In this document: piece after piece, positions 34,499 to 64,000 of the stretch
Layout: each line of letters begins with the position of its first letter
Numbering within the stretch: the first letter of the stretch is position 1
Assembly (NCBI GenBank): GCA_964549685.1
Contig: CAZJVE010000003.1
Location: forward strand, 32,344 to 96,343
DNA length: 64,000 nucleotides
Source of the DNA: an uncultured archaeon
GTDB taxonomy: Archaea > Altiarchaeota > Altiarchaeia > IMC4 > QMZM01
Direction: 5' to 3'
Program-made: the position numbers and the translations under genes
The notes under the pieces: model-generated
What the model was told of the DNA's origin: nothing
Seen by the model: only the letters and a program-made list of their open reading frames with translations
Databases searched by the model: none

Positions 34499-37400
34499 TC
34501 AGCCGGAACTTGCCCAGTTATTTATGGCCTCGATTACGTCTGCAAGAGTGAGCTCATCATCGTACCACATGCTTATGGCGTCTATCACCTCGGACAGGGT
34601 AACTTCACCATCCCCGTCAAAGTCTCCTGTAAGAGCACTCTCTGAGACGTCAATGGTTGTATCTCCCGCTATCGCCTGATCATCCACATCACCATATTCA
34701 AGCGTTCCGGAGAAGGTGTGGGTTCCGTTTGCACTTCCAAGTACCTGCACTGTGTAGGTTATGGTGGTATTCTCAACCGGATTGCCCAGGGCCCAGAACA
34801 GCCATTCTATCTTGTCTTCGCTCGGAGTATACTTTGCAGTTGGCGAAGTAGCGGTTACATTCCATCCAGAGGGCACGTTTTCGGTCACTCCCAGGGCCTC
34901 TGGAGGCATGCCACCAACAACAAGGTTTAGAGATACGGTAAATGTTCCACCAGGTGATGCCGTTGATGGGAGAGTTCTCGTAACCGTTATCTGTTCAATA
35001 GCGGTCGTATAGTTCACATAAAACCCGCCCATCAGGACATCGTACTGCGAGTCCGGATTTGTAACCTTGACGTTCTTGTACCCTCCTGAGAGCCCTGCCG
35101 GGACCGTTCCCGTGATGGAGGTTGAGTTTACAACCACAACGTTGTTAACGGCGGATCCCCCTACCAGAACCGTAGCCCCGCTCTCAAAGTTGGTGCCGGT
35201 TATTGTCACCGCCGTTGGCTGGTCGTTTGTTCCAGAGGTTGGGCTGATGCTTGTTACGGATGGCGGGTAGGTTGTCGTTACTGTGAATGCGTTTGAGCTT
35301 GTTGCCTGCTCGGCATTCGGGTTTATCACGGTGATGTCGTAGGTTCCGTCAGCGAGTGAAGGCACCGATACCTGTATTAGCGAGGAGCTGACAACGGAGA
35401 CTGTAGTTGCATAGGTAGTTCCAAACATTACGCTCGCTCCGTTCATAAAGTTGGTTCCGGCTATTACAACCTCCGCACCTGTAGCCCCTGTGCTTGGCGC
35501 CACCGCCTCAATTGTGGGCGTAATTGCAGCCCCTGTCGTACCTACCATCACGTCATCTATAATCCATCCCCTGAAGCCGTTGTACAGGTTGTCTATAGTG
35601 TTGAAGGTAAACTTGATTACAGTCTGGCTGGATGCATAGTCGCTTATGTCAAAGTACTGCGAGATCCAGACTCCGGGCAGCCCAAGGCCGCCGGAGCTGT
35701 ATGACTTGAATGTTTCTCCATCGACGTCGTTTATCGGGTTTATCGCCCCCAGTTGTGTGTATGTAACTCCTCCGTCCGTGGAGATGTAGACGTACATCAT
35801 GTCATAGCGGTCAACATCAAAACCCTCTATCTCGTACCAAGACATGAAGGTCAGGCTTGAGTTGGCTACTCCTGTAAGGTCTATCGTTGGGGATATGAGG
35901 TCGCCTGTATTCGCGGCATATGAAGTGCCGCCGCCCTTCGGGTTCTGGCAGTCGCCGTTGTAGTAGTAGTATGTAATATTATCGCATATGTTGGTGTAAT
36001 AGTCAGACCCTATGAAGGTTCCTGTTGAGTTCTCTCCATACCACCAGACCGTGGAGCCGCTGTATGCGCTCGGTAGATAGCCGTTGTCAGGCAATGAAAC
36101 CAGTTCCGGGTTGATGCCGGAGATTATGCTGACCAGCTCAGGGTTTGTCTCCTGGTGCCAGAAGCCCGTTGAGGTCCATCCGTTCGTTCCGCTTTCCATG
36201 TTGTCAAAAAACGATGTGTTTACGACCGCGCTTGAGCCGGTAACAGAGACGTTGTAGGCAGTGTCTGAAGTAACACTTGTATATCCTCCGTAGGGTGCTA
36301 TCTTCACATAATACGTTCCTGAGGATGTCGCAGTCCATTCTATCTTGGATTCCAGTCCGAGATAGTCGTCGTTCTCGCTCAGCAGCGATACGCAGTCCGT
36401 GTCGTATAGATAAAGGTAGGTGTCCGCGTTCGCAAACAGCTCGGACGTCTCTATCGTGTACACACCACCAGAAACGGCAGTGAATTTCACCCAGTCCTGG
36501 TCGTTGTATGGAACAAAGTTATGCGTCTGCTTGGTTCCATCAGTTGAGATTGTGGTTGCATCTGAGCAGGTGTCATCGGGCTCATAAGCGTCTGCTTCAG
36601 CTAAGATTGTGGTCGTTGATGTTGTCGTAGTAGTAGTCGTGTCATTGCACTCGTTGCAGGGAGACACCTCGGTCAGGACGTATCTCATGACAAGCGGGTC
36701 GGTGCAGGTGGGATACATGAGTGTTGTCGAGTATATCTCGCCGGTGTAGCAGTGCCCTGCAACCGGAGTAATGCCCATGCCGGAATTCATCACGTCGTCC
36801 AGCCAGACCCATGCCTGCTCACCGCAGTCGTCGCCGCTTCTTAGCTCTATGAGGTATTCTGTGGCGTTTCCTGCTCCCTCGCCGCAGCCGGCCTGGGTGC
36901 AGCCCTCGGAAACGACGTAGAACTCGATGCTTCCTGTCGTCCAGCCGGGGTCAGAGTGCGGGGTGTTGCATGTTCCAGAGACGGTGGTTGTGGTGGTAGG
37001 TACGGTCGTGGTTGTTGTTACGTTGATTGTGGTTGTGGTTGTTACGTTGATTGTGCTGGTTGTTGTAGTAGTAACGCAGCATGCCTCGGGCACGTTTACC
37101 GTCACATTAACGGTGTTAGAATCCACGTTTGATGAGGTTACAGTCACAGTGATGGTCATATTGCCGCAGACCCCGCCGTAGGGCTCCACGCTCCATGACG
37201 ATTGGTTGCTGCTGCCGTTGGCAATATTCCCCATGTCCTTCTGTGATGTTTCTCCGGCTGAGAGCATAAGGCCTGCGGGCAGCGAAATTGTCGCTGCAAC
37301 GTCGTTTGCTGTAGAGCCACCTACATTGCTGACATAGGCAACGACCGTGAAATTGCTGCAGTTACTTACAGTAGACGTTGCCGTAAGGCCGGCTGTCAGA

Positions 37401-38259
37401 TTACCTGAAGCAATCGTAACCTTTCCAAGCCCGTAGTAGGTCGTGTAGGTTCTGGATTGGCCTGCTGCGAGTGTCGTTGGATTCCAGTAGATAGCTACCG
37501 CGCTGTCCCCTGTTGCTTGCCCGGGGGTTACAGTGTAATTCCAATAGTAATCGTATATCTCATCCCACGAGGCAATAGTAAACTTATCGGGAGTTGTGGC
37601 GCCCCCTGTGGTGAGGGTTCCCTGGGCAATCAGGGTTGGGTTGGTTAAGGTATCAAAGCCCTGCCAGTATTCGGGTATGTTCGCCCCGGTGAATTCCATC
37701 TCAGTCGTTACAGCACCGGTTCCGGGAACGTTGAATGGGACGGCGTCATTGGAAGCAATCATCGTATCCAGCATCACTCTGGCGCCCACGTCCTGAGAAA
37801 CTGAGCCATTGTTCGTTACGGTATATTTAATCTCCACGGTATCTGCCTTCCAGTCGTTGAGCTTGTGACTATGGTAAGGGTCTGGGTTATGACTATGTCG
37901 GCTATAGTTTCTGTGAGAGTTATGGCATTCGTTGATGTCGTTGGAGCCGTAACCGCAATCGTGCCGGTACCATAGAGATAATTACTTCCATTTATCCTTA
38001 GTGAAGTGAAGGAACTCCATGGACTAGGGTGTCCAAACATCAATATCTGGTTATCGTCATTCGCATTGGCCGGGTCGCCTTGTTTGGTTCCCACGGTAAA
38101 TTTGGTGTTATCGGCGACGGCAATTTCTACATAAGTGTTATTGACCGTCACAATAGTAGCCGGCTCTATTCCGGCTTTCTCAACAGCAGTAACATTCAAA
38201 GATGCAAAAACAAGCAAAACAAAAAGGCACGTCCAGAGTTTGAGGGTGCTGAATTCCAT
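34499..38259 (-). pseudogene. Large secreted modular surface protein split by a 1-nt frameshift near 37847 (beta-domains, PPC, jelly-roll, 2x IPT/TIG, cohesin-like, dockerin-like)
   Basis: ORF 37816-38259 carries the signal peptide and ORF 34499-37837 continues the domain; one added base gives ...STTGRADTVEIKYTVTN; may be an assembly error rather than a true pseudogene. Confidence 0.72.
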
Positions 38260-38285
38260 TGTGATTATATATTGCACAATGGAAT
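38253..38285. promoter_or_regulatory. 11-bp perfect inverted repeat covering the start codon
   Basis: ATTCCATTGTG-N11-CACAATGGAAT; the ATG (38259-38257) lies inside one arm. Confidence 0.6.
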
Positions 38286-38299
38286 AAAAAAGGGTTTTT

Positions 38300-40495
38300 T
38301 CAGCGCTCCATGAAGCCCTCTGCCTTTGGAATTTCCATGCTGAGGCCCTTCCTTTTTCTGACGTCCATGACTACCTTGCCCTGGAGCTCGCTGGGCAATT
38401 TCTCGAAGCCCGAATTCTCGGTGCTCCAGAGGGCGTGGCCCTCGGTTGCGCTTCTTATATCTCCCGCAAAACCGAAGGATTCACCCACCGGCACCTTTCC
38501 TTCCACGGTCATGAGGTCGTCCTTCTGGTTCATCTGCAGTATTACGCCCCTTCTCTTCTGCAGCTCCTGGGTTACGGAGCCCATGTATTCCTGGGGCGTG
38601 TCTATCCATACCATCTGCATGGGTTCCATCATGCACGGTTCTGACTTGAGCAGGCAGGCATATATGGGATTCTTTACTGCAGGATATATCTGTGCCGGGC
38701 CCCTGTGGATTGCGTCCTCGTGCAGAGTAGCGTCCATCAGCTTTACCTTGACCTTTATCGTCGGCTCCTTCGCCAGGGGACCGTTCTCCATGATGTCCTC
38801 AAATGCGTCGAACATCAGCTCCATGACCTCGTCCAGGTGCTGGACTCCCCTCGTCATGTCAATGAACATATTGCCGCGGTAGATGTTGATTACTCTCTTT
38901 GCTTCCTCGCCGTCCATTCCCAGCTCTACGAGTTCAGCCCTTATGTCCTTGCTCTTGCCCTTTCTCCTGCCTTCTTCGATGTCGCCCTCGACTATTGCCT
39001 CGTATACTGAGTCTTCGAGGGGCTCCACCATGAGTTGGAACTTGTTGTGCTTGTTGGGGGACTTGCCCTCGATGGGACCAAATTTCCCGGAGATTGTCTC
39101 CCTGTAAACGACTATCGGCGGGGATGCGTTTATCTCAAGGCCGTCGGCCTTTATCCTGTTTACTATGACATCGAGATGGAGCTCGCCCATTCCCGAAAGG
39201 AGGTTCTCGCCTGTTTCCTCGTCAATCTGAACTCGCAATGCGGGGTCTTCCTTGGCTGTTTGTCTTAGAACCTCAACGACCTTTGGTAAATCCTTCATGC
39301 TCTTGGCCTCTATTGCCATGGTAACTACTGGCTCGGAGGTGTGAATCATGGCCTCGAAGGGCTTTATATCCTCAACGGAGACCGTTTCTCCGGCAAATGC
39401 CTTTTTAAGGCCAGTTATCCCGACGATGTTGCCTGCGGAAACAGCATCGGTATTCAGCCTGCTTGCGCCCATGTAGACGCTCACCTGCTGCACTCTCTCG
39501 GTGGATTTTGCCCCGACCAGGTAGACGTCCTGCCCCTGCTTAACAGTGCCTGAGAAGAGCCTGCCCGTAGCAACCTCGCCCTCCCTCTTGTCAAAGACGG
39601 ATATGTTGGTTATCATCATGGCCAGCTTTCCATTGGCGTCGCTGTTAATCATCGACTTGCCCATATCGCTCTCCAGGTCCCCCTTCCATATCTTGGGGAT
39701 TCTGAATCTCTGCGCCTCCAGCGGATTCGGTAGGTGCTTTACAGCAATGTTGAGAAGAATCTCGTGGGCCGGGGCCTTTTCAGAGAGCTCCCTCTGCCTT
39801 TCTTCATTGCAGTGGTCGATGATGTCCTTGAATGTGATGTTGCTCTGCTTCATATAGGGGACTGAAATTGCCCAGTTATGATAGGCAGAGCCAAAGGCAA
39901 CGCTTCCTCCGTCAACGCTTACGGCCCAGTCGACTCCTTCAGGCTGCCTCTGCTTTATTATCTTGTTGACCTCAGTTATGATTTTAACGAATCTCTTCTG
40001 CAGCTCCTCTGGAGTAAGCTTCAATTCGTTGATGAGGCGGTCGACCTTGTTTATGAACAATGTGGGCTTAACCCCCTCCTTGAGGGCCTGGCTGACTACG
40101 GTCTTCGTCTGGGGCATTACTCCCTCCACCGCACATGCCACTACTATTACTCCGTCAACTGCTCTCATTGCCCGGGTAACGTCTCCGCCAAAGTCAACGT
40201 GGCCGGGGGTGTCAATCATGTTTATGAGATATTTCCTGTCCTCGTAGGGGTGAACCATGGATACGTTGGCTGCGTTTATGGTAATGCCTCTCTCCCTCTC
40301 ATCGTCGTGGAAGTCCAGAGCAAGCTGCTTGCCAGCCATCTCCTTGGATATCATCCCTGCATTGCACAGGAGATTGTCCGAAAGGGTCGTCTTTCCGTGG
40401 TCTATATGAGCGACAATACCCATGTTCCGAATCTGCTCGGGCTTGCCAATCAGCTCCGTTATTTCCCGCATAATCTTATCTTCTCTAGCACCCAT
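38300..40495 (-). CDS. fusA: Elongation factor 2
   Basis: [28 protein letters not shown], diphthamide loop [11 protein letters not shown]. Confidence 0.98.
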
Positions 40496-40497
40496 TT

Positions 40498-41109
40498 TTA
40501 TCTTGAAGACTTTGCAATCCTCTCTGTTTCCTCCTTGCGCTGGATTGCATAGCTCTTTGTATCAGAATTCGCGGCCCAGATTATCTCATTGGCCAGGCAG
40601 TCCTCAACGGAATTCTTTGAATTAAAGGCTGTTGAGAAAGCGCCCAGGGATATGTACTTGAGAGCGAAGTCGACCCTTCTTTGCGAGGAAACATCAACGG
40701 CTTTGTGATAGCGGATTCCGCCGTATATTATGGTGGTGGTTTCTTCACTGGGCCCTGCATTTATGACGGCATTTACCAGTACCTGTACTGGATTCTGCTT
40801 TGTCCTCTTCTCTATGATTGCAAAAGCGTCCCTGACGATGTTTATCGCGTTCTGCTTCTTCCCTGTATTCCCGCCTCCCCGTATATAGCGGCCGGCTACC
40901 TTCTTTGTTCCCTGACCGGAGCGCATCATCTTGTTTGCCAAACGCTCAACGATATTCATCTTGCTCTTTGCGAACTGCTTGCCGGTCCTTCTTCCTGCCG
41001 TGTGTGGAATGTATACGGGCTCAAGGCATATGTATCTCTTCAGGCCCTCATCCTTCACATCGACCTTGAAGTCCCACTTCCCGAATAGCTTCTTTGTGTC
41101 TATGTCCAT
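40498..41109 (-). CDS. rps7: 30S ribosomal protein uS7
   Basis: [39 protein letters not shown]. Confidence 0.96.
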
Positions 41110-41111
41110 CT

Positions 41112-41264: not shown

Positions 41265-41265
41265 T

Positions 41266-41787: not shown

Positions 41788-41788
41788 C

Positions 41789-42454: not shown

Positions 42455-42455
42455 T

Positions 42456-42827: not shown

Positions 42828-42828
42828 C

Positions 42829-43266: not shown

Positions 43267-43267
43267 T

Positions 43268-51362: not shown

Positions 51363-51875
51363 TCACCAATGCTCGTTATGGACCTCTATATTCCTTGGCG
51401 AAGCGGATGGTTCCTCAGCCGGATAGCCAATAGGGATTATGGCAACGGGCCTGATTTCGGAAGGAATTCCCAGCACCTTTCTGACTGAGTTCTCGTCGAA
51501 TGCCCCGACCCAGCAGGCTCCGAGGCCAAGGGAATGCACCGCAAGGAGAATATTCTGTGCTGCTGCCGTTGCGTCCTGTATGCAGTAGAGTTCCTCTCCT
51601 CTGGAGCCGTATTTTGCAGCAGATTTCCCGGGATTTGCGCAGACAACGATAACTAGGGGCGCTTCAGAAACAGAATTCTGGGAGAGAGCAGCATCAGCAA
51701 GAACTCTCCTCCTCTCCGAATCCCTGACAACGATGAAGTCCCTCGCCTGCAGGTTTCCTGCCGAGGGAGCCTCCTTTGCAGCCTCCAGAATTTCCTCTAC
51801 TTTTTCTGCATCTATTTCATCAGGCCTGAACCTCCTGATGCAGTGCCTCCCTCTTATTGCTTCGAATAGTTGCAT
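51363..51875 (-). CDS. Nitroreductase family protein
   Basis: R..IR.F, APSAGNLQ, AAQNILL, GLGACWVG, IGYP. Confidence 0.92.
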   Translation of the reverse strand: MQLFEAIRGRHCIRRFRPDEIDAEKVEEILEAAKEAPSAGNLQARDFIVVRDSERRRVLADAALSQNSVSEAPLVIVVCANPGKSAAKYGSRGEELYCIQDATAAAQNILLAVHSLGLGACWVGAFDENSVRKVLGIPSEIRPVAIIPIGYPAEEPSASPRNIEVHNEHW

Positions 51876-51880
51876 GCCTA

Positions 51881-53782
51881 TCAACCAGACCAGGCAGTTA
51901 TCAGTGCTACAACGTCGGCAAGGGTTGCTTCTCCCAGGCTCCAGAGTGTTATGTGAGCCACAACCTCGGCAAGCGCAACCTCTCCACAGGGAGGTTCATC
52001 ACCAGTTAGTTCACAGCCAAAAATTGCAAGAATCTCTGTGTCCCCGATTACAACAGGGTATACGCTAGTCAGGCCGTAATAGGATGTGCCGTTAAAGGCA
52101 TAGGTGCCATTGGCATCTGAGGGAACAGTCACTGAATAGGTTATGTTTGTATCCTGCACCGGGCTGCCCAGTTCCCAGAATAGCCATTCTATGGAGCCGT
52201 TTTCCACTAAACCAGTTGGCTCAGTTGCAGTTACATTCCAGCCGCTTGGTGGGGTTTCGGTTACCCCGATTGAGTCAGGAAGATTTGATTCATCAACGTC
52301 CATCATAAGGGTTACTGTCAGTTCAGAGCCGGAGGTAACGTTCTCCGACAGGACTCTTGTCACATTCAGGGGATGGGTCGCCGGTATTGTTGTAGTAGTA
52401 ACTGCAATGTCGCTAATCCAGATTCCCGAATCTCCGCCGATGGCAGGGTCAACTGCTCCGCCATAGTCGACGGTCCCTGAAAAGGTATAGGTGCCGCTTG
52501 CGTTTGCCGGGACCTGGAGCATGTAGGTAAAGTCCTGGTCCTCGACTGCTGTTCCAAAACTCCAGAACAGCCACTCTATCCTGTTGGGGTTTGTCTTTTG
52601 CTCGCCTGTTACGCTCATCCCCAGAATATTCCATCCCTCAGGCAGGTATTCAATGACACCAGCCGAATCAGGAATATCCGATTCGTCCACCTCCATGGTC
52701 ATGGTAACGGTAATGTTGCTGCCAGGGGTTCCACTGCTTACCAGGGTTCTGTTCACCATGACTGGATATTCACTCGCAGATATTGTGGATGTGGATGTGG
52801 TTGAGGTCGTAGACGTTGAGGTCGTTGTAGTCAGGGGCGTTCCTATGACAAAGAGTACATAATCGCCGCTAACTGAGGGGTCAGTGTCTCCACCATAGTC
52901 TATCGTTCCATTAAAGGTATATTGGCCATTGGCATCAGATGGTGCTCTTATGCTATAGGTTATGGTCTGGTCCTCCAACGCAAGACCGAATGCCCAGAAT
53001 ATCCAGCTTATCCTGTCGCTCTCTGAGTTATAATCCCCGGTCGGCGACATAGATACGAATTCCCAGCCATCGGGAAGTTCCTCAACCAGGCCTGCTGAAT
53101 CCAGTCCCGCCGCTTCATTGATGTCCATAGTCAGAGTAACTGAAACGGCCTCGTTAGGATTTGCGCTACTAGGCAAATCCCTGCTAACATATACTGAATG
53201 CTCATACGGCCATACAGTGGTTGTTGTTTCAACGGCTGTTGTTGAGGTGGATGTCGTGGATGTTGATGTGGTTGACGTCACTACAGGCCCGCTGACTGAG
53301 ATTGTTGTATCCCCTCCAACGGATGGGTTGCTTGCTCCTCCATAGTCTATCGTCCCGCTAAATGTATAGGAACCATCCGCATCCTGGGGAATTCTTATCG
53401 TATAGGTTATCGTGGTGTCCTGAACCGGCAGGCCGAAAAGGGCCGAAAAAAGCCAGTTTACCTTGTTGTTTTCTGCGCTGTAATCTCCGTCGGGGGATTC
53501 GGCCGTTACTGTCCATCCCGAAGGGACGAATTCGCTAAGACCGATGGAAGTTGGCTCCTGGCCCTCAGTAACGTCCATGGTAAGAGTTACCTGGATGCTG
53601 TCGCCCGGATTTGCAGTATCGGGCAAGTCCCTTATTGCTGCCACTGGATCGGATGCAATCCCTATGACCTTCCCTATCGCACCCGTATCCCTTTCCTGTT
53701 CTCCTAAGAAGCAGCCGATTGACACAAAAAGAAAAAATAGAATCAACCCTGCTTTAATTGTATATCCTTTCGTTATTGGCAT
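51881..53782 (-). CDS. Secreted protein with four tandem cohesin-like beta-domains, Thr linkers and a dockerin-like tail
   Basis: Signal peptide ending SIGC; 4x RxL...VT(L/M)xM(D/E)...GW...W(L/I)F...TY...F.GT..YG...GD; C-terminal GDEPPCGEV...W...W. Confidence 0.8.
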   Translation of the reverse strand: MPITKGYTIKAGLILFFLFVSIGCFLGEQERDTGAIGKVIGIASDPVAAIRDLPDTANPGDSIQVTLTMDVTEGQEPTSIGLSEFVPSGWTVTAESPDGDYSAENNKVNWLFSALFGLPVQDTTITYTIRIPQDADGSYTFSGTIDYGGASNPSVGGDTTISVSGPVVTSTTSTSTTSTSTTAVETTTTVWPYEHSVYVSRDLPSSANPNEAVSVTLTMDINEAAGLDSAGLVEELPDGWEFVSMSPTGDYNSESDRISWIFWAFGLALEDQTITYSIRAPSDANGQYTFNGTIDYGGDTDPSVSGDYVLFVIGTPLTTTTSTSTTSTTSTSTISASEYPVMVNRTLVSSGTPGSNITVTMTMEVDESDIPDSAGVIEYLPEGWNILGMSVTGEQKTNPNRIEWLFWSFGTAVEDQDFTYMLQVPANASGTYTFSGTVDYGGAVDPAIGGDSGIWISDIAVTTTTIPATHPLNVTRVLSENVTSGSELTVTLMMDVDESNLPDSIGVTETPPSGWNVTATEPTGLVENGSIEWLFWELGSPVQDTNITYSVTVPSDANGTYAFNGTSYYGLTSVYPVVIGDTEILAIFGCELTGDEPPCGEVALAEVVAHITLWSLGEATLADVVALITAWSG

Positions 53783-53828: not shown

Positions 53829-56800
53829 TCAAGTCGCCCATGCAGTTATCAGGTCTATTACGGCGGCTAGCTCTGCATTGCCTGCGGACCATAGGGTTAT
53901 GTAGTCAACTACCTCTGCCAATGAAACCACTCCACAGGGAGATTCATCCCCAAGCAGTGTGCATACTGACCCAACAGTTACCGCTCCGTTTGAGGTGCTC
54001 AGGGTGAGTGAGGTCCCGTTAACATCTCTCACGGTTACGTTTTCCAGGGTCAGAGTTGCGCTTCCGTCCGCAATCGAATTGAAGTTTATTGCTGCTATAA
54101 CTCCGGATGCCGTAAGCCCGCCGTCTACTGCACTGCGGCTTCTGCTGAAGGTTACCGTCCCTGCCGTATTGCTGTAGGTCGGAGCATCTCCAGTCGTATC
54201 CGCTCCATCTGAGCTAAGGAAGTCACCCTCCGTAACGCTTGTAGCCTGTAGCACGCTCTTGTTGAACAGCAGGACAAACTCCACTCCGAGCACATTATCG
54301 GTCTCTGTCGAGGTTATGTTTATGCTGAACGACTCATCACTATCAGCACTGACTGATGACGGAGTCACCCTCACTATCGTTCCGCCTTCCTGAACCGTTA
54401 TTATGACCTCGTCCGTGTCCGTGTTGTCGTCGTTGTCCGTAGCTGTCAGCGTTATTGTGTGCGTCCCAACGGCAAAGTCACTCTTTGTGAAGGAGCTCTG
54501 CGTGCTCAGGACATCGGTTCCATCCTTCCACTCATATGCGTCGATGGTGCCGTCTGTATCGTAAGAGTCAGAGGCATCAAGGGTTACTGATTCGCCACTG
54601 TTTATAGTCTGGTCTGTTCCAGCATCAGCCACGGGGTCCTGCTGGGCACTGACGCTTATCGTTACTGTATCGGTGTCCTTAAGGCCGTCGTCGTCGGTAA
54701 TCTCCAGAGTTACCGTGTATGTCCCTGCAGTGGAGTACTTGTGCGACGGCTTTATCTCTGTGGATTCAGAGCCGTCATTGAAGTCCCAGTGGTAGGAGAT
54801 TATCTCACCATCAGAGTCACTGGACGCCGAGCCGTCGAACGAAACGCTGTTGTCCAGGTCGACCGTCTGGTCGTTCCCTGCGTTTGATGTGGGCTCTGCA
54901 GCTGCCGCTGAGACTGTAACGGTCAGGGTGTCAGTTCCTGTGAGGCTCTCATCGTCCGTTACCGTCAGAGTCACCGTGTAGGTTCCGGGTGTTGAATAGA
55001 TGTGGGACTGCGTGACTCCATAGACAACGTCTCCATCGGCGAAGTTCCATGCATAGGACTGTATTGTCCCGTCATCAGTGGAATCGTCGCCGCCTACATA
55101 GACTGTCGTTCCAAGGCTTATCGTCTGGTCAGGGCCCGCACTTGCGGTCGGCGATGTCCCTATTCCAGGAGCTATGGATGCCATCTTTATCATCGAGGAA
55201 TTTACGCTCTGTAGGGTGAAGTCCTGTGTCGTTGTCGCTCCGTCTGTAATCGTCACGTTCACCTCAACGTCATCATAGCCCTCCAGATACGCCTCGATAG
55301 TATAGGTTCCGGCTGGAATTCCATCTATGAGGTAGGTGCCATCGTCCTCTGTCTCCTCCCAGTCTTCCCCGAAGCCTTCTCCAGGAATCCAGATGTTTAT
55401 GTTTACCTCCTCAAGTGGAGTTCCATTGGAATCCGTTACCGTTCCTGTGAGATTCCCTCCGTCCGATAGGGTGAAGTCCACTCCGGTGGTATTCACTCCT
55501 GCGGTTACAGATACATCCTCTTCCATCGTGCCCGCATATCCTTCGGCCTCGGGCTTTACCTTGTAGGTTCCTGCAGGGAGGTCGTCTATCACATAGTTTC
55601 CGCTGGCGTCGGTGAGTGCCTCGCCGCCCGCGTATGTACCTGGGCTCCATGCAAATACCTCTATGTCGGCAACCCCTGCTCCGCCATAGGTTACCGTTCC
55701 GGATATTGCCCCCGCCGCTGCCAGGGTAAAGTCTATTCCGGAGGTAGTCTGCCCGGCTGTTACGGAGACTGACGACTGCATCTGCGGTGCATAGTTGGAA
55801 TAGTGCACCTCGACGTTATACGTGCCTGCTGGAAGCCCCGTTATTGTGTAGGTTCCGCTGGAACCGGTCTTCGTCCATCCGTGGCCGGTATCCTCATCAT
55901 TCCAGGCCTCGACGTGGACATCCGATACTGCCCCGCTGGCATCTGTTACTGTCCCTGAGATTGAGCCTCCCTGGGCAAGTGCAAAGTCTATGCTGGAGGT
56001 TTCTGCTCCTGCAGTAACAGTGACCGTCTGCTCATTCGCAGTATAACTCTCATAGGTGGTTCCCATGAGGTCAAGGCCGACATGATAGCTTCCCGAGGAC
56101 AGGCCGCTTATCGTGTAGGTGCCTGAGTCATCCGTTATCGTGTCGCCCCAGTCTGGTGCACCCTCTCTCCAGGCCCATACCCTGACGTAGGAGACCGCGG
56201 CGCTGCTCAGAGTAACGGTTCCGGAAATAGAACCTCCCGTGGTCAGAGCAAAGTCGACTCCTGTCTCCGAGCCTCCGGCAGCCACAGTTACGGTCTGCTC
56301 CAGAGATGCGTAGCTTGCGTAGGATGTGTCTTCTGTCCTTATATTGACGTGGTACTTGCCTCCCATCAGGCCGTTTATCGTATAGGTTCCGTCAGAGGCC
56401 GTAACTGTGTCACCCCAGTCCGGGGTTTCTCCTGACTCCCAGTCTCTCCATGCATCGACCCTTACATACTGGGCTGCTGCTCCGCCCGCAGTTACTGTCC
56501 CGGAAATCGATGCTCCCTGAGTCAGAGAGAAGTCAACTCCGGACCTTTCTTCTCCTGCAGTCACGCTGACTATCTTCTCCGATGCAGCATATCCTGAATA
56601 AGAACTGCCTGTTGCATCTACCTTCACGTGATAGGTTCCTGTTGTCAGACCGCTCAGCGTATAGGTTCCGTCGGAGGCCGTCCATGTATCGCCCCAGTCA
56701 GGCGACTCCTCCTTCCAGGCCTCTATCCTTGCATACTGGACCGCCTGCCCTCCGGTGGTTACCGTTCCTGAGATGGAGCCTCCGGTGGTCAGTAAAAAGT

Positions 56801-59800
56801 CCACCCCAGAGGTTGTCTGGCCGGCTGCTACAGTAACGACCTTCTCCTCGGATGCGTAGTTGGTATAGGTCGTGCCGGTCGGACCCCAGCCGAAGTGCAC
56901 CTCGACGTGGTATATTCCTGCCGAAAGCCCGGGAATCGTGTAGGTTCCGTCGGATGCGGTCATGCTTCCGCCCCAGCCCGGAGCCCCTTCTTTCCATGCC
57001 TCGACCCTCAGGTAGGCTACAGCTCCATCTGCATCCGTTACTGTTCCGGATATCGAGCCCCCGCTCTCCAGTGCGAAGTCGATGCCGGTGACTGCCTCGC
57101 CTGTGCTTATGGCTATTCTCTGGTTGGTTGTGGCGTAATTTTCATAGGTCGTTCCCTCAAGCCTGACCTCCACGAAGTAGTCTCCCCCTATCAGGCCGGT
57201 TATCGTGTAGGTGCCGTCAGACTCTGTCATGGTTCCGCCCCAGCCGCCACCTTCTTCCTTGAAGGCCTCTACCTTTACGTAGGGGACTCCCGCGCCGCTA
57301 AGAGTAACGGTGCCTGAGATTGATGCCCCGTCGCTGAGGTCGAAATTCACACCGGAGGTTTCTGTTCCTGCAGTTACTGTTACGGTCTGCTCCTCTGCTG
57401 CGATATTCTGTGTTGTTCCTGTGGAACTCCAGAACGGGTGCGCGCTGATGTGGTAGGTCCCTGCTGCCAGCCCTGTAACTGTATAGGTCCCGTCAGAGTC
57501 GGACATTGCATTGCTCCATCCGGCCTCGCTCCATGCATCAACTATCACTCCGAGCATTGGAGCGCTGTTATAGGTCACTGTCCCCGATATGGAGCCACCC
57601 GTGATCAGCACGAAATTCACGCCGGACGTATCTGACCCCGCGGTAACGGTTACGGTCTGATCATCCGTCGCATAATTGGTTGTCGAGCCCCACTGCGCCC
57701 TGACGATGCAGTGATAGATTCCGCTGTTCAGACCCCTTACCTGGTAGGTTCCATCCTGCTGAACCATAGTCTCGCCGTGACCCTCCCCCATTTCCTTCCA
57801 GCACTCGACCCTCATGTCTGGCACCGGGCTGCCGCTGGAATCTTTAACGGTTCCTGATATTGAGCCTCCTGCAGTCAGCAAAAAGTCCACCCCGGAGGTT
57901 TCCGCTCCTGTTGTCACCGACACAATCTGCTCCTCGCTTGCATAATTTGTGCTGCTGCCCCAGGTATCGATATTCACGTGGTAAATTCCTGAATATAGAC
58001 CAGTTATGGTATAGGCCCCGTCAGATGAGGTCATGCTTCCGCCCCATCCGCCGGTCTCGCTCCATGCATGGATAGTTATGTAGGCAACCGCCCCGTTTGC
58101 ATCGGTCACGGTTCCGGATATTGAACCTCCTGTTGTCAGGGTGAAATCGACTCCAGATGTGTCAGCCCCTGTATCAACTGTTACCGTCTGCGGCTGGGCT
58201 GCGTAATCGGAGAAAATCTCTACTCTGTAGGTTCCGCTTGTCAGGCCAGTTATTGTATAGGTGCCATCTGATGCCGTCCAGGCGTTGCCCCACCCGTGTT
58301 CCATCTCCTTATGAGCCTCTACCATTATGTCAGATGCCCCGCTTCCGCCCGAATAAGTAACTGTTCCGGAGATTGAGCCGCCCGTGCTCAGATTGAAATT
58401 CACGCCACTTGTTTCCTGGCCTGCTGTGACTGAAACAACCTGCTCCTCGCTGGCATAATTCATGTCAGAATCGCTGGCACGAATCTGGACGTGGTAGGTT
58501 CCTGTTGAAAGCCCAGTTATTGTGAAAGTTCCGTCGGAGGATGTCCAGGCATCGCCCCATCCCGCGCCGTTCTCCATCCAGCACTCGACTCTTATATTTG
58601 CTACTGCAGTTCCTGAGGCAGTAACGGTTCCTGAGATGGAGCCGCCTGTTGTCATGGCAAAGTCGACTCCAGTAACTGCCTGGCCTGCTGTTACTGTTAC
58701 AATTATCTCCTCCGAGGCGTAGTTTGTTCCACTATCCCCGGAATGAACATCTACATGGTAGGTTCCGGACATAAGACCAGATATCGTGTAGGTCCCGTCG
58801 GATTCGGTCATGGCTCCTCCTCCTCCGCAGCCAGCTGTTTCGGTTGATTCGCACCATGCTCCCACGTTTGTATTGGCCACTGCCACCCCATTATAGGTTA
58901 CGGTTCCCGATATTGAGCCCCCTGTAGCCAGTGCAAAGTCCACGCCCGTAGTTTCCTGACCTTCCACGACCGAGACGGTCTGCTCCTCTGTCGCGTAATT
59001 GGTCGTTGAACCCCACTCGATGTGAATTCCTACTCTGTAGGTTCCGGTGGAGAGGCCCGTTATTGAATACTCCCCTGTTTCTGAGGTCATTGCCTCGCCC
59101 CAGCTGTCGCAGTTCTCGCAGTGTGCCTCGAGCCGGAGGTGTGATACTGCCCCGCTCGCATCAGTTACCGTTCCGGAGATGGTGCCGCCCAGAGTAAGTG
59201 CAAAGTCTATTCCAGTGACCTGCTGTCCCTCCGTCAGGATTACGACTATTTCATCAGCTGCGTAATTGCTTGTAGCTGCTGCTCCTGTCGGGTCCCAGTC
59301 GTTCCTTACCTTAACGCGGTATGTCCCTGCTGACAGGCCCGTTATCGTGTAGGTTCCGTCGGATGCCGTCTCGTCATCGCCCCAGCCGGAGCCCTGCTCG
59401 TTCCAGCACTCGACCCGCATATTTGTTACTGCAGAGCCGCCATAGGTAACGGTTCCGGATATTGAAGCTCCTGCTGAGAGGACGAAATTCACGCCAGTGG
59501 TTTCCTGGCCCGCCACGACCGTTACTGTCTGCGGGTCGGATGCGTAGGTTGTCGTCCCATCCGAGCGAACCTCTATCTCATAGACCCCGCTGGACAGACC
59601 GGTTATTGTGTAGGTGCCATCGCTCTCAGTCCAATCGTTGCCCCAGCCCATGCCCTCGTGATTCCAGCACTCGACGTGGGCGTTTGCGACAGGGCTTCCA
59701 CCATACGTAACGGTTCCTGATATTGAGCCGCCTGCTGTCAGTGAAAAGTCCACTCCAGTGGTTGCAGAACCCGCAGTAACAGACGCGGTCTGCTCCTCGG

Positions 59801-62800
59801 TGGCATAATTCAGGTTCTCCTCCTCTGTCCGGACCATCACACGGTAGGTTCCGGTTGACAGCCCGTTTATTGTATATGTTCCATCTGTGGCTGTCATGGC
59901 ATCGCCCCATCCTGAGCCCTGCTCGTTCCAGCACTCGACCCTTATGTTTGCTACCGCTCCACTGGCATCTGTTACTGTCCCTGAGATTGAGCCCCCTGCC
60001 GAGAGGACGAAATTCGCGCCGGATGTTTCACTGCCGGCAGTTACGCTGACCATCTGTGAATCCACTGCATAGTTCGCTGTGGAGTCGTCAATCCTGACCT
60101 CCACTCGGTATGTTCCGGTGGAAAGCCCACTTATTGTATATGTTCCGTCTGACTCTGTCCACGACTCACCCCCGCCTGAACCCATCTCGTTCCAGCACTC
60201 CACCCTAAGGTTAGGCGCTGGAGAAGCATCTGAGTAGGTTACCGTTCCGGAGATTGAACCGCCCAATGAGAGGACGAAATCCACGCCAGTGACATCCTGA
60301 CCCGATGTTACTGTAACCGTTGTTGTAGCGGATGCATAGCTTCCTGAGCTGACCTCCACATGATAAATTCCACTTGACAGACCAGTTATCGTATAGGTTC
60401 CATCAGAGTCTGTCATTGCCCAGCCGCTGCCGTCTCCACCCGCTGTATTCCATGCATTCAAATCTGCATTGGCTATCGGGCTTCCGGCAGAATCCGTAAC
60501 CGTCCCTGATATCGAGGCTCCGGATGCAAGTACGAAATTCACGCCCGTAGTCTCCTGGCCAGCGGTTACGGTGGCGGTCTGCGACTCAACCGCGTAGTTC
60601 ATATTCGGGTCGTCTATTCTGGCTTCAACCCGGTATGTCCCAGAGGGCAGGCCATTTAGTGTATAGGTTCCGTCGGAGGCTGTCCAGTCCTCTCCATGAC
60701 CACTTCCACCGGCCGCGTTATCTGACTCCTGCCAGGCCTCTATCCTTATATCCGATGCCCCTGTGCCATCGGAATAGGTAACGGTTCCTGAGATGGAGCC
60801 GCCGAGGGTCAGTACAAAGTCCACTCCGGATACCGTTTCTCCGGCAGTTACGGAAACCGTCTGCTCGGGCGCTGTGTAAGCTGAATAATCAGTATGTTCC
60901 AACCGAAGCATGACTGTATATGTATCGGTAACAAGCCCCGAAATGATGTAGTTCCCGTCGGATTCGGTCATTGCCGACCCACTTCCGGTGGGGCCCCATG
61001 CATCCAGATGCGCGTTTGGTACCCCTACTCCGCCTGCCGTAACGCTTCCGGTTATAGTTCCGCCTGCAGACAGCTGTATGTCCTTGGTTAATGCCCCTGA
61101 GATGTATATGTCGTCTTCATCATAGCCGGCCAGTCCCGAATCGCTGGGTGGTGAGACATGGAGAGTATAGTAGAGTCCGTCAGGAAGACCGTCCACGGCA
61201 TATGCTCCGCTGCTGTCGGTCATCTCCATCGTGCTATAGCCCCCCTCGTGATTCCAAACATCCACGTGTGCATTCGCTACTGCGTTTCCGTCCGATGATG
61301 TTATCGTTCCCGAAATCGATGCGGTGCAGGACATCTGGTAGTAGTAGGACCAGTCATCATCGCAGGGACTATAACATTCTGGAAGGGTCTCGCAGTCCGG
61401 GTCGTCGCAGTCCGCCAGCCCGTCACCATCGTTGTCCTCTCCGTCGGTGCATAGCCCGGATTCATCCCCAGGGCCAACGCCGGCCGTTTCACACGCATTG
61501 GATTCGTAGTTCCATTCGCAGTCCGCTTGCGCATTACACTCGGTTTCGCCCAGGTTGGGGCAGTCCACTGCTATTTCCGTGCAGGTATCGGTCTGGCTGT
61601 CCCATCCGCAGCCCGTTTGGCTGTTGCATGTGGTTTCGTCCATTAACTGTGAACACGTATCTTCGACGGTGCAGTCCTCCGGGCAGCTTCCCATTGTTTC
61701 GTCTGCGTCACAGACTCCGTCGTGGTTGCACTGCCCCCCGCCGACGCTGCAGGAGCCAGTTCCGGCGTCCCACAGGCAGCCAAACGGGCTGGCCGAGCAG
61801 TCGGGCTCGTTATAGCAGTAGTTACAGTCAGAGTTGCAGTCTGATGCCGCTCCGCAGTCATTGGGGCAGCTCTCAGCAGTCTCATCTGAATCACAGATGC
61901 CATCGTAGTTGCAGGCGCCCGTTATCGTGGTTGTGGTTGCGGCGCCGCAGGGGTCACCGAATGGATGGGGCATCGGAGTCGGCATCACCTCCCAGTCCGA
62001 AACGGAATCCGTGTCTGTGTTAAAGTCTAGTCTTGCTATTGATTCACCCTCATTCGCGATGATATCCCATCCCGAGATGTAGCCCTCCCACGCAACCATG
62101 TCGGTTTCATATCCGGTTGAGTCCATCAGGTACAGGACATCGCCGGAATTGCCGAGGGACAGGGTCAGGCCGTCGAGGTCTGGATCGCATCCTTGAAGAT
62201 TATTGAAGCCAAAGCTGTCCTTTGCTATCACGAAGGTATCGTGCGGTTCTATTACTCCTGAGGAGAAGGTGTATGTGAGTGTGTTATCCTCAATCGCATA
62301 GCCCGTGAGGTCTACGCTGTTGGGGGTCGGGTTATAAATCTCTATCCACTCCTCCTCAGAATCGCTTCCCGGGGTGTTGTAGAGGACCTCACTGAATATC
62401 AGATAGTCCAGTGTACTGACGATGGTGGTGGTTGTGGTCATTACAGCACAGTCATTCGGGCATGTCTCTACTGTCTCGTCTGCATCACAGACGCCGTCGT
62501 AGTTGCAGGCGCCCGTTATTGTGGTTGTGGCTGCTGCGTCGCACGTAGGGACACTTGAGTCAGGATTGCAGGAATCAGCATCGTTGGGGTCATAGAGAGA
62601 ATCCCCGGCTGGTGCATCCGTAAAATGGCCGTCCCTGTCATTATCTGTTGCATATCCTGAAAGAGGTGGTGCGGAGCTGAAGTCCCCTGAGCCATCCGAA
62701 AGATAGTAGACTGTGTAGTGCAGGTAGCACTTGGACGGCACATCAACCGAATCTCCATAGCAGTTGATTGCATGGACCTCCAGCGCGCCGTAGTTGCCCC

Positions 62801-64000
62801 CGCCATAGAGGAGGACTATATCGCCCTCATCGATGGTGACCGTAGCCATATCCACGACATAATTAGCAGCATTTACATTGACTATGTCGGTCTCGGATGT
62901 TAATGCTAGAAGGACGTTGCAGTTTACACAGCTTGAGCCGGAGCCATATATATACCCAGAAGTCGTACCCGCGACTGACCACATAGATGTTAGAACATCA
63001 TGGCTGAATTCCATTGAGTCCCATACGACGTCTGTGTAGATAGTTATCCCCCCGGATGGCATGGTCGTTGTGGTTCCCTGGCAAGCCGGGTCTGCCGTGT
63101 CTACATCGCCGTCGCAGTCGTTGTCTATTCCATCGGAGCAGTAAAAGGACTCGTCCATTCCGGGATTAACGTTGGGGTCAGCATCGTCGCAGTCATTTCC
63201 GTTGGGGCAGTTAACGGCATCGAAAACATAATAGCCGTCGCCGTCGCCGTCTGTGCAGGCCCCTGTGACGGTTGTTGATGTAACAGGGACTGTTGTTGTC
63301 GTAGCGCCTGAAACACAGCTCCACATACCGCCGCCGCTATCGATACATGTATCGCCTGCTGCACATACATAGCAAGTACATGCATGGTCAATAGGATAGG
63401 AATAGCAGGAATCGTTTGTATTGGCACAGGCGTCGTCGGGGCAGTCAAGAGGCTGGCACTGCAATGTTGTCTGATTGCAGACGTAGGTGTCGGTGCAGTC
63501 TGCGCTGGTGCTGCAGCCGGTTATTATGGAGGTTGTTGTGACGTTGGCTGTCGTGGTGGTTGGTAGGGTGGTTGAGGTTGACGTGCCTGGAACTGTAGTG
63601 GTTGTGGTTGGTGGTGCTGTGGTTGTGGTGGTTGGCAGGGTGGTGGTTGGTGCTGTTGTGGTGGTTGGTACGGTTGTTGTGGTCGGTATGGTCGTGGTTG
63701 GTGCTGTGGTTGTGGTTGGTATGGTGGTTGTGGTTGGGACTGTTGTGGTTGGTGCTGTTGAGGTGGTTGGTATGGTTGTTGTGGGTACAAGCTGACAGGT
63801 TCCGGAGTCGCAGAATTCATCAGGACCACAATCCTCCAGTACAGTAGGTACAGTACAGGGGTCTCCTACTGTGGCAGGAGCAATAGAGCCCGCGTCCTGC
63901 ACCCCGATAATATTCCCAATCATGGAGAAGATATCAGGAATCCATGGGTCTGCAGAGGCAACGCCGCTCAGGGAAATCAACAAAAAGGTAACAAAAATCG
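53829..64000 (-). CDS. Giant surface protein (>3,380 aa; start beyond window): Thr/Cys-rich region, MopE-like motif, lamin-tail domain, 23 carboxypeptidase-regulatory-like repeats, 3 PKD, cohesin, dockerin-like tail
   Basis: Frame open to the window edge (..IFVTFLLISLSG signal peptide); SEVLYN...EWIEIYN (LTD); GGSISGTV repeats; SDG.I.SY.W.F.DG (PKD); VEFVLLFNKSVLQATSVTEG (cohesin). Confidence 0.88.
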   Translation of the reverse strand, partial: IFVTFLLISLSGVASADPWIPDIFSMIGNIIGVQDAGSIAPATVGDPCTVPTVLEDCGPDEFCDSGTCQLVPTTTIPTTSTAPTTTVPTTTTIPTTTTAPTTTIPTTTTVPTTTTAPTTTLPTTTTTAPPTTTTTVPGTSTSTTLPTTTTANVTTTSIITGCSTSADCTDTYVCNQTTLQCQPLDCPDDACANTNDSCYSYPIDHACTCYVCAAGDTCIDSGGGMWSCVSGATTTTVPVTSTTVTGACTDGDGDGYYVFDAVNCPNGNDCDDADPNVNPGMDESFYCSDGIDNDCDGDVDTADPACQGTTTTMPSGGITIYTDVVWDSMEFSHDVLTSMWSVAGTTSGYIYGSGSSCVNCNVLLALTSETDIVNVNAANYVVDMATVTIDEGDIVLLYGGGNYGALEVHAINCYGDSVDVPSKCYLHYTVYYLSDGSGDFSSAPPLSGYATDNDRDGHFTDAPAGDSLYDPNDADSCNPDSSVPTCDAAATTTITGACNYDGVCDADETVETCPNDCAVMTTTTTIVSTLDYLIFSEVLYNTPGSDSEEEWIEIYNPTPNSVDLTGYAIEDNTLTYTFSSGVIEPHDTFVIAKDSFGFNNLQGCDPDLDGLTLSLGNSGDVLYLMDSTGYETDMVAWEGYISGWDIIANEGESIARLDFNTDTDSVSDWEVMPTPMPHPFGDPCGAATTTTITGACNYDGICDSDETAESCPNDCGAASDCNSDCNYCYNEPDCSASPFGCLWDAGTGSCSVGGGQCNHDGVCDADETMGSCPEDCTVEDTCSQLMDETTCNSQTGCGWDSQTDTCTEIAVDCPNLGETECNAQADCEWNYESNACETAGVGPGDESGLCTDGEDNDGDGLADCDDPDCETLPECYSPCDDDWSYYYQMSCTASISGTITSSDGNAVANAHVDVWNHEGGYSTMEMTDSSGAYAVDGLPDGLYYTLHVSPPSDSGLAGYDEDDIYISGALTKDIQLSAGGTITGSVTAGGVGVPNAHLDAWGPTGSGSAMTESDGNYIISGLVTDTYTVMLRLEHTDYSAYTAPEQTVSVTAGETVSGVDFVLTLGGSISGTVTYSDGTGASDIRIEAWQESDNAAGGSGHGEDWTASDGTYTLNGLPSGTYRVEARIDDPNMNYAVESQTATVTAGQETTGVNFVLASGASISGTVTDSAGSPIANADLNAWNTAGGDGSGWAMTDSDGTYTITGLSSGIYHVEVSSGSYASATTTVTVTSGQDVTGVDFVLSLGGSISGTVTYSDASPAPNLRVECWNEMGSGGGESWTESDGTYTISGLSTGTYRVEVRIDDSTANYAVDSQMVSVTAGSETSGANFVLSAGGSISGTVTDASGAVANIRVECWNEQGSGWGDAMTATDGTYTINGLSTGTYRVMVRTEEENLNYATEEQTASVTAGSATTGVDFSLTAGGSISGTVTYGGSPVANAHVECWNHEGMGWGNDWTESDGTYTITGLSSGVYEIEVRSDGTTTYASDPQTVTVVAGQETTGVNFVLSAGASISGTVTYGGSAVTNMRVECWNEQGSGWGDDETASDGTYTITGLSAGTYRVKVRNDWDPTGAAATSNYAADEIVVILTEGQQVTGIDFALTLGGTISGTVTDASGAVSHLRLEAHCENCDSWGEAMTSETGEYSITGLSTGTYRVGIHIEWGSTTNYATEEQTVSVVEGQETTGVDFALATGGSISGTVTYNGVAVANTNVGAWCESTETAGCGGGGAMTESDGTYTISGLMSGTYHVDVHSGDSGTNYASEEIIVTVTAGQAVTGVDFAMTTGGSISGTVTASGTAVANIRVECWMENGAGWGDAWTSSDGTFTITGLSTGTYHVQIRASDSDMNYASEEQVVSVTAGQETSGVNFNLSTGGSISGTVTYSGGSGASDIMVEAHKEMEHGWGNAWTASDGTYTITGLTSGTYRVEIFSDYAAQPQTVTVDTGADTSGVDFTLTTGGSISGTVTDANGAVAYITIHAWSETGGWGGSMTSSDGAYTITGLYSGIYHVNIDTWGSSTNYASEEQIVSVTTGAETSGVDFLLTAGGSISGTVKDSSGSPVPDMRVECWKEMGEGHGETMVQQDGTYQVRGLNSGIYHCIVRAQWGSTTNYATDDQTVTVTAGSDTSGVNFVLITGGSISGTVTYNSAPMLGVIVDAWSEAGWSNAMSDSDGTYTVTGLAAGTYHISAHPFWSSTGTTQNIAAEEQTVTVTAGTETSGVNFDLSDGASISGTVTLSGAGVPYVKVEAFKEEGGGWGGTMTESDGTYTITGLIGGDYFVEVRLEGTTYENYATTNQRIAISTGEAVTGIDFALESGGSISGTVTDADGAVAYLRVEAWKEGAPGWGGSMTASDGTYTIPGLSAGIYHVEVHFGWGPTGTTYTNYASEEKVVTVAAGQTTSGVDFLLTTGGSISGTVTTGGQAVQYARIEAWKEESPDWGDTWTASDGTYTLSGLTTGTYHVKVDATGSSYSGYAASEKIVSVTAGEERSGVDFSLTQGASISGTVTAGGAAAQYVRVDAWRDWESGETPDWGDTVTASDGTYTINGLMGGKYHVNIRTEDTSYASYASLEQTVTVAAGGSETGVDFALTTGGSISGTVTLSSAAVSYVRVWAWREGAPDWGDTITDDSGTYTISGLSSGSYHVGLDLMGTTYESYTANEQTVTVTAGAETSSIDFALAQGGSISGTVTDASGAVSDVHVEAWNDEDTGHGWTKTGSSGTYTITGLPAGTYNVEVHYSNYAPQMQSSVSVTAGQTTSGIDFTLAAAGAISGTVTYGGAGVADIEVFAWSPGTYAGGEALTDASGNYVIDDLPAGTYKVKPEAEGYAGTMEEDVSVTAGVNTTGVDFTLSDGGNLTGTVTDSNGTPLEEVNINIWIPGEGFGEDWEETEDDGTYLIDGIPAGTYTIEAYLEGYDDVEVNVTITDGATTTQDFTLQSVNSSMIKMASIAPGIGTSPTASAGPDQTISLGTTVYVGGDDSTDDGTIQSYAWNFADGDVVYGVTQSHIYSTPGTYTVTLTVTDDESLTGTDTLTVTVSAAAAEPTSNAGNDQTVDLDNSVSFDGSASSDSDGEIISYHWDFNDGSESTEIKPSHKYSTAGTYTVTLEITDDDGLKDTDTVTISVSAQQDPVADAGTDQTINSGESVTLDASDSYDTDGTIDAYEWKDGTDVLSTQSSFTKSDFAVGTHTITLTATDNDDNTDTDEVIITVQEGGTIVRVTPSSVSADSDESFSINITSTETDNVLGVEFVLLFNKSVLQATSVTEGDFLSSDGADTTGDAPTYSNTAGTVTFSRSRSAVDGGLTASGVIAAINFNSIADGSATLTLENVTVRDVNGTSLTLSTSNGAVTVGSVCTLLGDESPCGVVSLAEVVDYITLWSAGNAELAAVIDLITAWAT
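55207..61325 (-). repeat. 23 diverged tandem ~90-aa intragenic repeats
   Basis: Manual count of G(G/A)(S/T)ISGTV...DGTYTI.GL..GTY.V...V.AG..T.GV(D/N)F units. Confidence 0.85.
63525..63790 (-). repeat. Low-complexity PTTTT mucin-like linker
   Basis: GGTTGT/GGTTGG-rich tract encoding (PTTTT[AIV])n. Confidence 0.85.

Follow-up and report, generated by a model that had tools for sequence, protein, structure and literature searches.

Several described systems stand close to the one treated here. Natural dockerins of ~40 amino acids (aa) with a single calcium repeat, the group 2 dockerins of R. flavefaciens, bind cohesin, as stated in the accessible part of the report by Duarte et al. (2025, J Biol Chem, PMC12270676). 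Non-cellulosomal dockerins are described from archaea, namely Archaeoglobus fulgidus and ANME, in the accessible sections of another paper (PMC9012536). Among surface β-sandwiches, the DUF11/CLIPPER stalk domain (PDB 9ifr) has isopeptide-forming Lys/Asn in many members according to the available portion of its preprint (bioRxiv 10.1101/2025.04.25.650565). Here we analyze a stretch of 64,000 nucleotides, hereafter the window, from contig CAZJVE010000003.1 of a metagenome-assembled genome (MAG) of the Altiarchaeota (all positions are those of the window), in which three secreted proteins end in a related 44-residue module that we call the tail. Altiarchaeota are abundant uncultivated archaea of subsurface and marine habitats with elaborate surface structures. 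We show that the tail is a recurrent module of one Altiarchaeota family, and we lean, by a modest degree, toward the reading that it would act as a general docking tag tethering diverse secreted proteins to a shared surface partner; that the tail docks is inferred. No description of the tail module was found in the literature on archaeal, DPANN, or Altiarchaeota cohesin, dockerin, or hami, subscription journals lying outside this search.

The three C-terminal stretches quoted in a preliminary description of the window, which was made from the letters of the DNA, are exact translations of the minus strand, and each closes a long open reading frame (ORF; 34499-37837, 51881-53782, and 53829-63998). 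The tails share 43-48% identity across 44 residues, with 15 invariant columns and without internal gaps, and represent one conserved module, as the preliminary description had maintained. The features of the three genes are as follows.

53829..63998, minus strand: giant secreted protein, 3389 aa visible, its N-terminal signal peptide and 5' end lost at the contig end
53967..54386, minus strand: cohesin domain of the giant (PF00963 profile)
53832..53963, minus strand: 44-aa tail of the giant, Cys-stapled type, beginning 1 residue past the cohesin boundary used
51881..53782, minus strand: 633-aa secreted protein with signal peptide, four β-domains with Thr/Ser linkers between them, and tail
53291..53647, minus strand: β-domain copy 1 of the 633-aa protein, a DUF11/CLIPPER-like sandwich
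52844..53200, minus strand: β-domain copy 2 of the 633-aa protein (profile)
52412..52768, minus strand: β-domain copy 3 of the 633-aa protein (profile)
52022..52375, minus strand: β-domain copy 4 of the 633-aa protein, adjoining the tail (AlphaFold2 model and Foldseek)
51884..52015, minus strand: 44-aa tail of the 633-aa protein, Cys-stapled type (AlphaFold2 model)
34499..37837, minus strand: 1112-aa protein with an N-terminal domain without Pfam name, a Cys-rich region, PPC, InhA-like MAM, two TIG domains, one β-domain, and tail
34643..34993, minus strand: β-domain of the 1112-aa protein, adjoining the tail
34502..34633, minus strand: tail of the 1112-aa protein, calcium-loop type, in which DFDGDGEVTLSE fits the EF-hand loop pattern

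The domain layout originally proposed for these proteins was borne out by profile searches. The penultimate domain of the giant, taken for a classical-looking cohesin, matches Pfam cohesin PF00963 with 33.7 bits against a cut-off of 24.1, over profile positions 3-139 of 139 (34.4 bits in the whole-genome scan), and a β-domain of ~120 aa precedes the other two tails, with four copies in the 633-aa protein and one in the 1112-aa protein. The giant is otherwise built of Thr-rich linkers, Cys-rich modules, a lamin-tail domain, at least 23 CarboxypepD_reg-like repeats, and 3 PKD domains according to Pfam. Besides the N-terminal signal, the three proteins have no hydrophobic stretch and no C-terminal anchor, in keeping with the initial view that they are secreted and carry no C-terminal transmembrane or PGF-CTERM segment. 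The 1112-aa protein contains the peptidase-accessory domains PPC and InhA-like MAM (Pfam), and a Pfam scan of the three window proteins detected no catalytic domain.

The tail is abundant in the genome to which the window belongs, a MAG of 1.17 Mb in 27 contigs with an estimated completeness of ~85%. A hidden Markov model (HMM) of the three tails, searched against all six-frame ORFs at a domain E of ≤6e-8, identified 22 ORFs that carry it: the three window genes (each at E ~1e-25) and 19 others, so that the family extends far beyond chance. A 23rd, partial copy was found in a later profile scan. The tail is C-terminal in 18 of the 22 ORFs (≤6 residues from the stop), internal in 3, each with a Thr/Ser linker after the tail, and cut by a contig end in 1; it commonly sits after a Thr/Ser-rich linker. 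A signal-like hydrophobic stretch opens 20 of the 22 carriers; apart from it, no carrier shows a transmembrane-like segment, at the C terminus or elsewhere. The cargo includes three Peptidase_S8 proteins, a Peptidase_C25 (gingipain-type), a CHAT protease, and many NosD/β-helix proteins, together with Laminin_G, FG-GAP, and PQQ propeller proteins and an LTD-cohesin-cupredoxin protein. The earlier statement that the tailed proteins comprise no evident enzymes thus applies to the three window genes and not to the genome as a whole. Beyond this genome, a tally of 50 of the 149 best database matches, picked for a length of ~680 aa or less, gave NosD/β-helix 16 times, GEVED 3 times, PQQ twice, and assorted hydrolases once each.

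A 21-sequence profile of the tail was searched against 1.84 billion protein cluster representatives, of which 580 matched at E ≤ 1e-3 and 255 at E ≤ 1e-10. Among the full-length modules in the best matches (n = 138), 112 (81%) lie ≤6 aa from the C terminus and 26 lie elsewhere, and the Cys of the stapled form opens 134 of the 138. Tails occur in tandem in P0010 and P0013 and at the N terminus, just past the signal peptide, in P0024 and P0075. We also observed tails nested within a loop of the β-domain, splitting the β-domain HMM match at ~55-60 (P0041; G017:C30:4454-4924; G014:C8:16282-16752), an architecture that recurs in at least two genomes. Because the tail is also found internally, N-terminally, in tandem, and nested, it reads as a domain and not as a sorting signal, and it is most likely an autonomous domain.

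Phylogenetically, the tail is narrowly confined. It is present in 10 of 31 related genomes, every one of them in the window's own family, with 1-27 copies each, and a profile scan did not find it in 12 genomes from six other families of the same order. All four named public contigs retrieved with a 6-row tail alignment belong to Candidatus Altiarchaeota MAGs. A homologue search with the tail region yielded two proteins, the query protein and another with 98% identity to it. A protein-atlas search with the tail pointed to Hydrogenedentota clusters at 0.91-0.92 and, at 0.82, to a cluster with 11% Dockerin_1, which we regard as leads only.

The tail consists of an N-terminal loop and two short amphipathic helices, each closed by an invariant Trp. 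In AlphaFold2 (AF2) models, its predicted local distance difference test score (pLDDT) is 97.2 when the tail is modeled alone, with helices at residues 15-26 and 32-43, and 90.9 when it is modeled together with the preceding β-domain; the two helices are present in both. Its consensus is CxLxGDxxPCGEVxLAEVIDxIxLWxxxxAxLxDVIDLIxxWA, in which E17, W25, I39, and W42 are invariant (alignment A2). In the 1112-aa protein, the loop within the tail at 34502-34633 follows the canonical EF-hand pattern DxDxDGxVxxxE, and such calcium-type tails are a minority of the copies. In the majority, Pro and Cys occupy loop positions 3 and 5, and another Cys is located nine residues upstream, which suggests a Cys-Cys disulfide in place of calcium. 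These majority tails retain Asp1, Gly6, Val8, and Glu12 of the EF-hand loop; Glu at loop position 12 is an EF-hand rather than a dockerin residue. The orthologs of the giant in the same genus, L030 (G001:C72) and L031 (G002:C5), have a calcium-type tail with ELL/DLL helices (GDVDGNGTVSDFELLDYIDQW...DLLAAIASW). Because they lack the Cys-stapled EVI/DVI form, the stapled and calcium forms appear to interconvert between close relatives.

Concerning the ancestry of the tail, a search of PDB sequences with a 46-row profile placed EF-hand loops at the top (best E 3.6e-4), and a 21-row profile included two dockerins, 5n5p_B at E 0.03 and 2y3n_B at E 1. As an EF-hand, the tail scores 15 bits with Pfam EF-hand_1/6 against a cut-off of 25, and the loop pattern is present in the minority form only. 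The tail is outside the Pfam dockerin family. A genome scan with Dockerin_1 at E ≤ 1 matched no tail and only the classical C-terminal module of L001, an S8 subtilase (21 bits, cut-off 22.9). The tail holds one loop instead of the two calcium loop-helix repeats of a dockerin, and its second helix follows the first after 5-6 residues (A2). We compared it by hhalign with a classical set of 12 two-repeat dockerins from related Altiarchaeota genomes. All 43 columns aligned, with a probability of 65% and an E of 5.9e-5, a score that is modest and comes from one pairwise comparison, and the alignment contains one 16-residue gap that matches the linker and the second calcium loop. To judge from these profiles, the tail most likely descends, in shortened form, from an F-hand/dockerin-type module and has lost the second calcium loop. 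Its initial designation as dockerin-like is therefore supported by the EF-hand loop and by hhalign, but neither by Pfam nor by fold comparison.

One candidate for a partner is cohesin. Three ORFs of this genome bear a cohesin, and all three also bear a tail. The two other genomes of the genus have kept the arrangement in which the giant closes with cohesin plus tail (L030, L031). Since no Pfam dockerin was detected in these two genomes, the cohesin of the giant's orthologs has no dockerin-like module at its disposal but the tail. The module next to the cohesin in relatives is either a classical dockerin (L033 and L039 in G009) or a calcium-type tail (L030, L031). A complex prediction for the cohesin of the giant (A8) and the tail (A7), carried out for one pair without controls, gave ipSAE values of 0.00 and 0.00 and a mark of 0.32 and counts neither way.

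The other candidate is the β-domain, for which the name cohesin-like was not upheld. In hhalign against 12 local cohesins its probability was 0.3%, and Pfam gave no match to DUF11 or to PF00963 and only a weak match to NPCBM_assoc/NEW3. When its AF2 model was compared with the PDB by Foldseek, the top match was the DUF11/CLIPPER stalk domain 9ifr, with a template modeling score (TM-score) of 0.76 and a root-mean-square deviation (rmsd) of 2.8 Å over 121 columns. Cohesins accounted for ~19 of the 44 matches listed (E ~1e-5), with TM-scores of 0.47-0.58 and rmsd values of 4.4-5.7 Å, no better than those for unrelated sandwiches such as YcnI and complement MG domains. Given the hhalign result and the low cohesin TM-scores, the β-domain is cohesin-like at most as a loose fold resemblance. 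An assignment as an isopeptide-bonded CLIPPER domain was rejected, as alignment A6 contains no invariant Lys.

In this genome, the β-domain is found in 6 ORFs (10 copies), all 6 of them tail-bearing, and the last copy adjoins the tail in 5. Among the 31 genomes, it is present in 9 of the 10 that are tail-positive versus 1 of the 21 that are tail-negative, a phyletic link that is suggestive only because the genomes are kin and the modules share proteins. Proteins composed of only a signal peptide, 2-4 β-domains, and a tail (P0129, P0133, G014:C40, and G001:C52) have ordinary signal peptides and no anchor. Because they recur in several genera, the β-domain appears to have a function of its own, and we infer that it is the best remaining protein candidate for the partner of the tail.

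According to the docking reading, one Altiarchaeota family would use the tail as a docking tag on secreted proteins. Its loop would be held by calcium in a minority of copies or, in the majority, by a Cys-Cys disulfide in the place of two calcium ligands. The tagged cargo would comprise giant adhesin-like stalks, β-helix proteins, lectin-like and propeller domains, and S8, C25, and CHAT proteases, represented in the window by the giant stalk protein, the small protein with four β-domains, and the MAM/PPC/TIG protein. The tail, mostly ending a Thr/Ser-rich linker, may tether these carriers to a common cell-surface partner. Several of our results weigh against this reading. No receptor for the tail was found, and its 81% C-terminal bias would equally suit a sorting signal. 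The dockerin affinity on which the analogy draws gave a modest hhalign score, and other searches were negative: the three tails and three C-terminal pieces had no match to Pfam PF00404 Dockerin_1 at E ≤ 10, no dockerin was among the best 60 PDB sequences with the 46-row profile, and a Foldseek comparison of the tail model with the PDB gave a best E of 4.3 with no dockerin among the matches listed, a query of 44 residues having little power. In addition, neither Pfam nor Altiarchaeota-built profiles found a cohesin in the tail carriers G007, G011, G016, and G017, of which G007 is 97% complete and has 27 tails. Because four tail-carrying genomes show no cohesin, cohesin is not the general partner of the tail but at most a lineage-local one, and the proposal of a cohesin socket as the general mechanism had to be abandoned. 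Finally, the S8 subtilase L001 (G000:C2:84437-89749, minus strand) contains a cohesin, an internal tail, and a classical dockerin-like C terminus. Because it carries both modules plus a cohesin, tail and dockerin are probably not interchangeable, which suggests different partners. L001 also has a CUB-like Cys-rich domain, and its C terminus is a two-repeat dockerin-like module just below the Pfam cut-off.

Three other explanations were considered. The tail could target its carriers to the envelope, by binding a glycan, a lipid, or the outer membrane, or by being recognized by an export or sorting machinery in the manner of the C-terminal domain of the type IX secretion system or of PGF-CTERM. 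Altiarchaeota have a double membrane. Such a role would account for the position of 81% of the modules ≤6 aa from the C terminus, usually after a Thr/Ser-rich linker, for the many unrelated secreted cargoes per genome, and for the lack of a conserved protein receptor among our findings, and it would not need a cohesin. We nevertheless consider it unlikely, since the tail is a globular mini-domain that AF2 folds very confidently, has no hydrophobic or transmembrane segment and no cleavage-type motif, and is internal, N-terminal, tandem, or nested in 26 of 138 modules, a freedom that known C-terminal sorting signals do not tolerate. A PGF-CTERM, PEP-CTERM, LPXTG, or sortase-type signal in particular was rejected, as the 22 carriers have no hydrophobic tail and the same 26 modules are not C-terminal. 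The preliminary description had favored a closed, self-assembling mesh, in which the tail is the plug and the cohesin of the giant and the β-domains are the sockets, so that the proteins would form head-to-tail polymers with branch points at the four-domain protein. The association of all 3 cohesin ORFs of this genome with tails, the conservation of the cohesin-plus-tail end of the giant in L030 and L031 in genomes without a Pfam dockerin, the restriction of the β-domain to tail-bearing ORFs (6 of 6, 10 copies) and largely to tail-positive genomes, and the share of cohesins among its Foldseek matches are all compatible with a mesh, and proteins of signal peptide, 2-4 β-domains, and tail in several genera would be odd if the β-domain were a mere spacer. 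However, the β-domain does not match cohesin by hhalign (0.3%) or Pfam and is closer in fold to DUF11/CLIPPER (TM-score 0.76) than to cohesins (0.47-0.58), and the co-occurrence is partly trivial, as the modules reside in the same proteins and the genomes are related. G016, which is 80% complete, has 11 tails and no β-domain match. Moreover, 3 cohesins and ~5 β-domains standing free of a tail could not hold all the carriers of 22 tails, and no component has a cell anchor. A mesh of this kind therefore seems quite improbable to us.

The tail might instead associate with itself, for example by two hairpins forming a four-helix bundle, and so dimerize or cross-link its carriers, or it might simply cap the C terminus and make it more stable. 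Alignment A2 shows a conserved hydrophobic stripe (L15, V18, I19, I22, and W25 together with L32, V35, I36, I39, and W42), and tandem copies do occur. The heptad spacing suggests, however, that the core of the 44-residue hairpin accounts for these hydrophobic residues, and indiscriminate cross-linking of proteases and adhesins would be without obvious use. We regard self-association as very unlikely. A further variant of the docking reading combines it with the β-domain, which would then be a hitherto unrecognized, non-cohesin socket for the tail, so that small secreted proteins composed of just 2-4 β-domains and a tail, such as that encoded at 51881-53782, would be archaeal scaffoldins. This variant is a long shot. 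Such scaffoldins would bring proteases, β-helix proteins, and giant adhesins together in a surface network that resembles a cellulosome without being cellulolytic, and in whose evolution both members of the classical cohesin-dockerin pair would have been replaced.

The surroundings of the three genes are archaeal, with genes for aEF-2, aEF-1alpha, RPA, and ribosomal proteins L3, L4, S3, and S7 nearby, and the sequencing runs that contain DNA of the window are from seawater or marine metagenomes, with no RNA data set listed for the locus. The 633-aa gene sits 46 nt downstream of the giant. A nitroreductase-family gene on the same strand (51363-51884) shares 4 nt with the stop of the 633-aa gene, and the three may share a transcript. 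The signal peptide of the 633-aa protein (residues 14-25) ends in a lipobox-like SIGC; because the signal peptides of P0129 and P0133, relatives with the same architecture, are plain ones, we doubt that the protein has a lipid anchor. The third tail-bearing gene (34499-38277) is inserted between the genes for aEF-1alpha and aEF-2 (33096-34367 and 38300-40495), in an otherwise conserved archaeal cluster of translation-factor and ribosomal-protein genes. This gene has a frame break, in which the following ORF is involved.

37816..38277, minus strand: overlapping upstream ORF of 153 aa in another frame, bearing a signal peptide

The 1112-aa gene (reading frame 34499-37981, minus strand) is without a signal peptide of its own, and the upstream ORF supplies one; this ORF is probably the true N terminus of the 1112-aa protein. 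A shift of -1 separates the two frames near 37840-37850. Because contigs from runs X6 and X9, which belong to two other studies, span 37709-37872 without an indel, the frame break is not an artifact of one assembly and is common to the population. It could represent a genuine frameshift mutation or recoding, or two genes may be present. In the ortholog P0090 the start lies at an internal Met, which leaves the frame break of the 1112-aa gene as it is.

The tail marks ~2% of the genes in a 1.2-Mb genome, among them proteases and giant adhesin-like proteins, and points to a dedicated surface-assembly system. It would provide a natural F-hand/dockerin-type loop in which a disulfide may stand in for calcium, relevant to the evolution of cohesin-dockerin pairs and to very small affinity tags. 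Should its partner prove not to be a cohesin, it would belong to a new plug-socket pair.

By comparison with known systems, the likeness of the β-domain to DUF11/CLIPPER is one of fold only. DUF11/CLIPPER is its best fold match, and both form tandem repeats in surface proteins, in the case of DUF11/CLIPPER in those of archaea and bacteria as far as the available portion of the source describes; by contrast, the β-domain has no Pfam DUF11 match and no invariant isopeptide Lys and is tied to the tail. With EF-hand loops such as calmodulin EF-hand 4 and Entamoeba CaBP, calcium-type tails share the full DxDxDGxVxxxE pattern and the exiting helix (E 3.6e-4). Unlike EF-hands, the tail lacks an entering helix as well as a second EF-hand to pair with, and it stays below the Pfam cut-off, and its majority form is not expected to bind calcium canonically. 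Classical type I dockerins (PF00404), in the published accounts accessible to us, resemble the tail in their F-hand loop-helix, in their C-terminal position on diverse secreted cargo, and in the presence of a cohesin in the same polypeptide, and the tail has a weak profile-profile similarity to the classical dockerins of this lineage itself. It differs from them in that PF00404 does not match, it has neither a second calcium loop nor an inter-repeat linker, and both modules coexist in L001. From the R. flavefaciens group 2 dockerins, to which neither PDB sequence profiles nor Foldseek retrieved a match, the tail differs in its archaeal origin, in the several carrier genomes in which no cohesin was found, in the Pro/Cys at ligands 3 and 5 and the putative disulfide of most copies, and in the invariant Trp that ends both helices. 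Group 2 and group 4 dockerins have a Gly-Arg recognition pair at loop positions 10/11, as given in the accessible text on these groups, where the tail has Leu and a small residue. Yet, if the group 2 dockerins are taken as that same accessible text (PMC12270676) describes them, they and the tail are alike in general plan: both are modules of ~40-44 aa with one loop-helix repeat, usually placed at the C terminus of a secreted protein.

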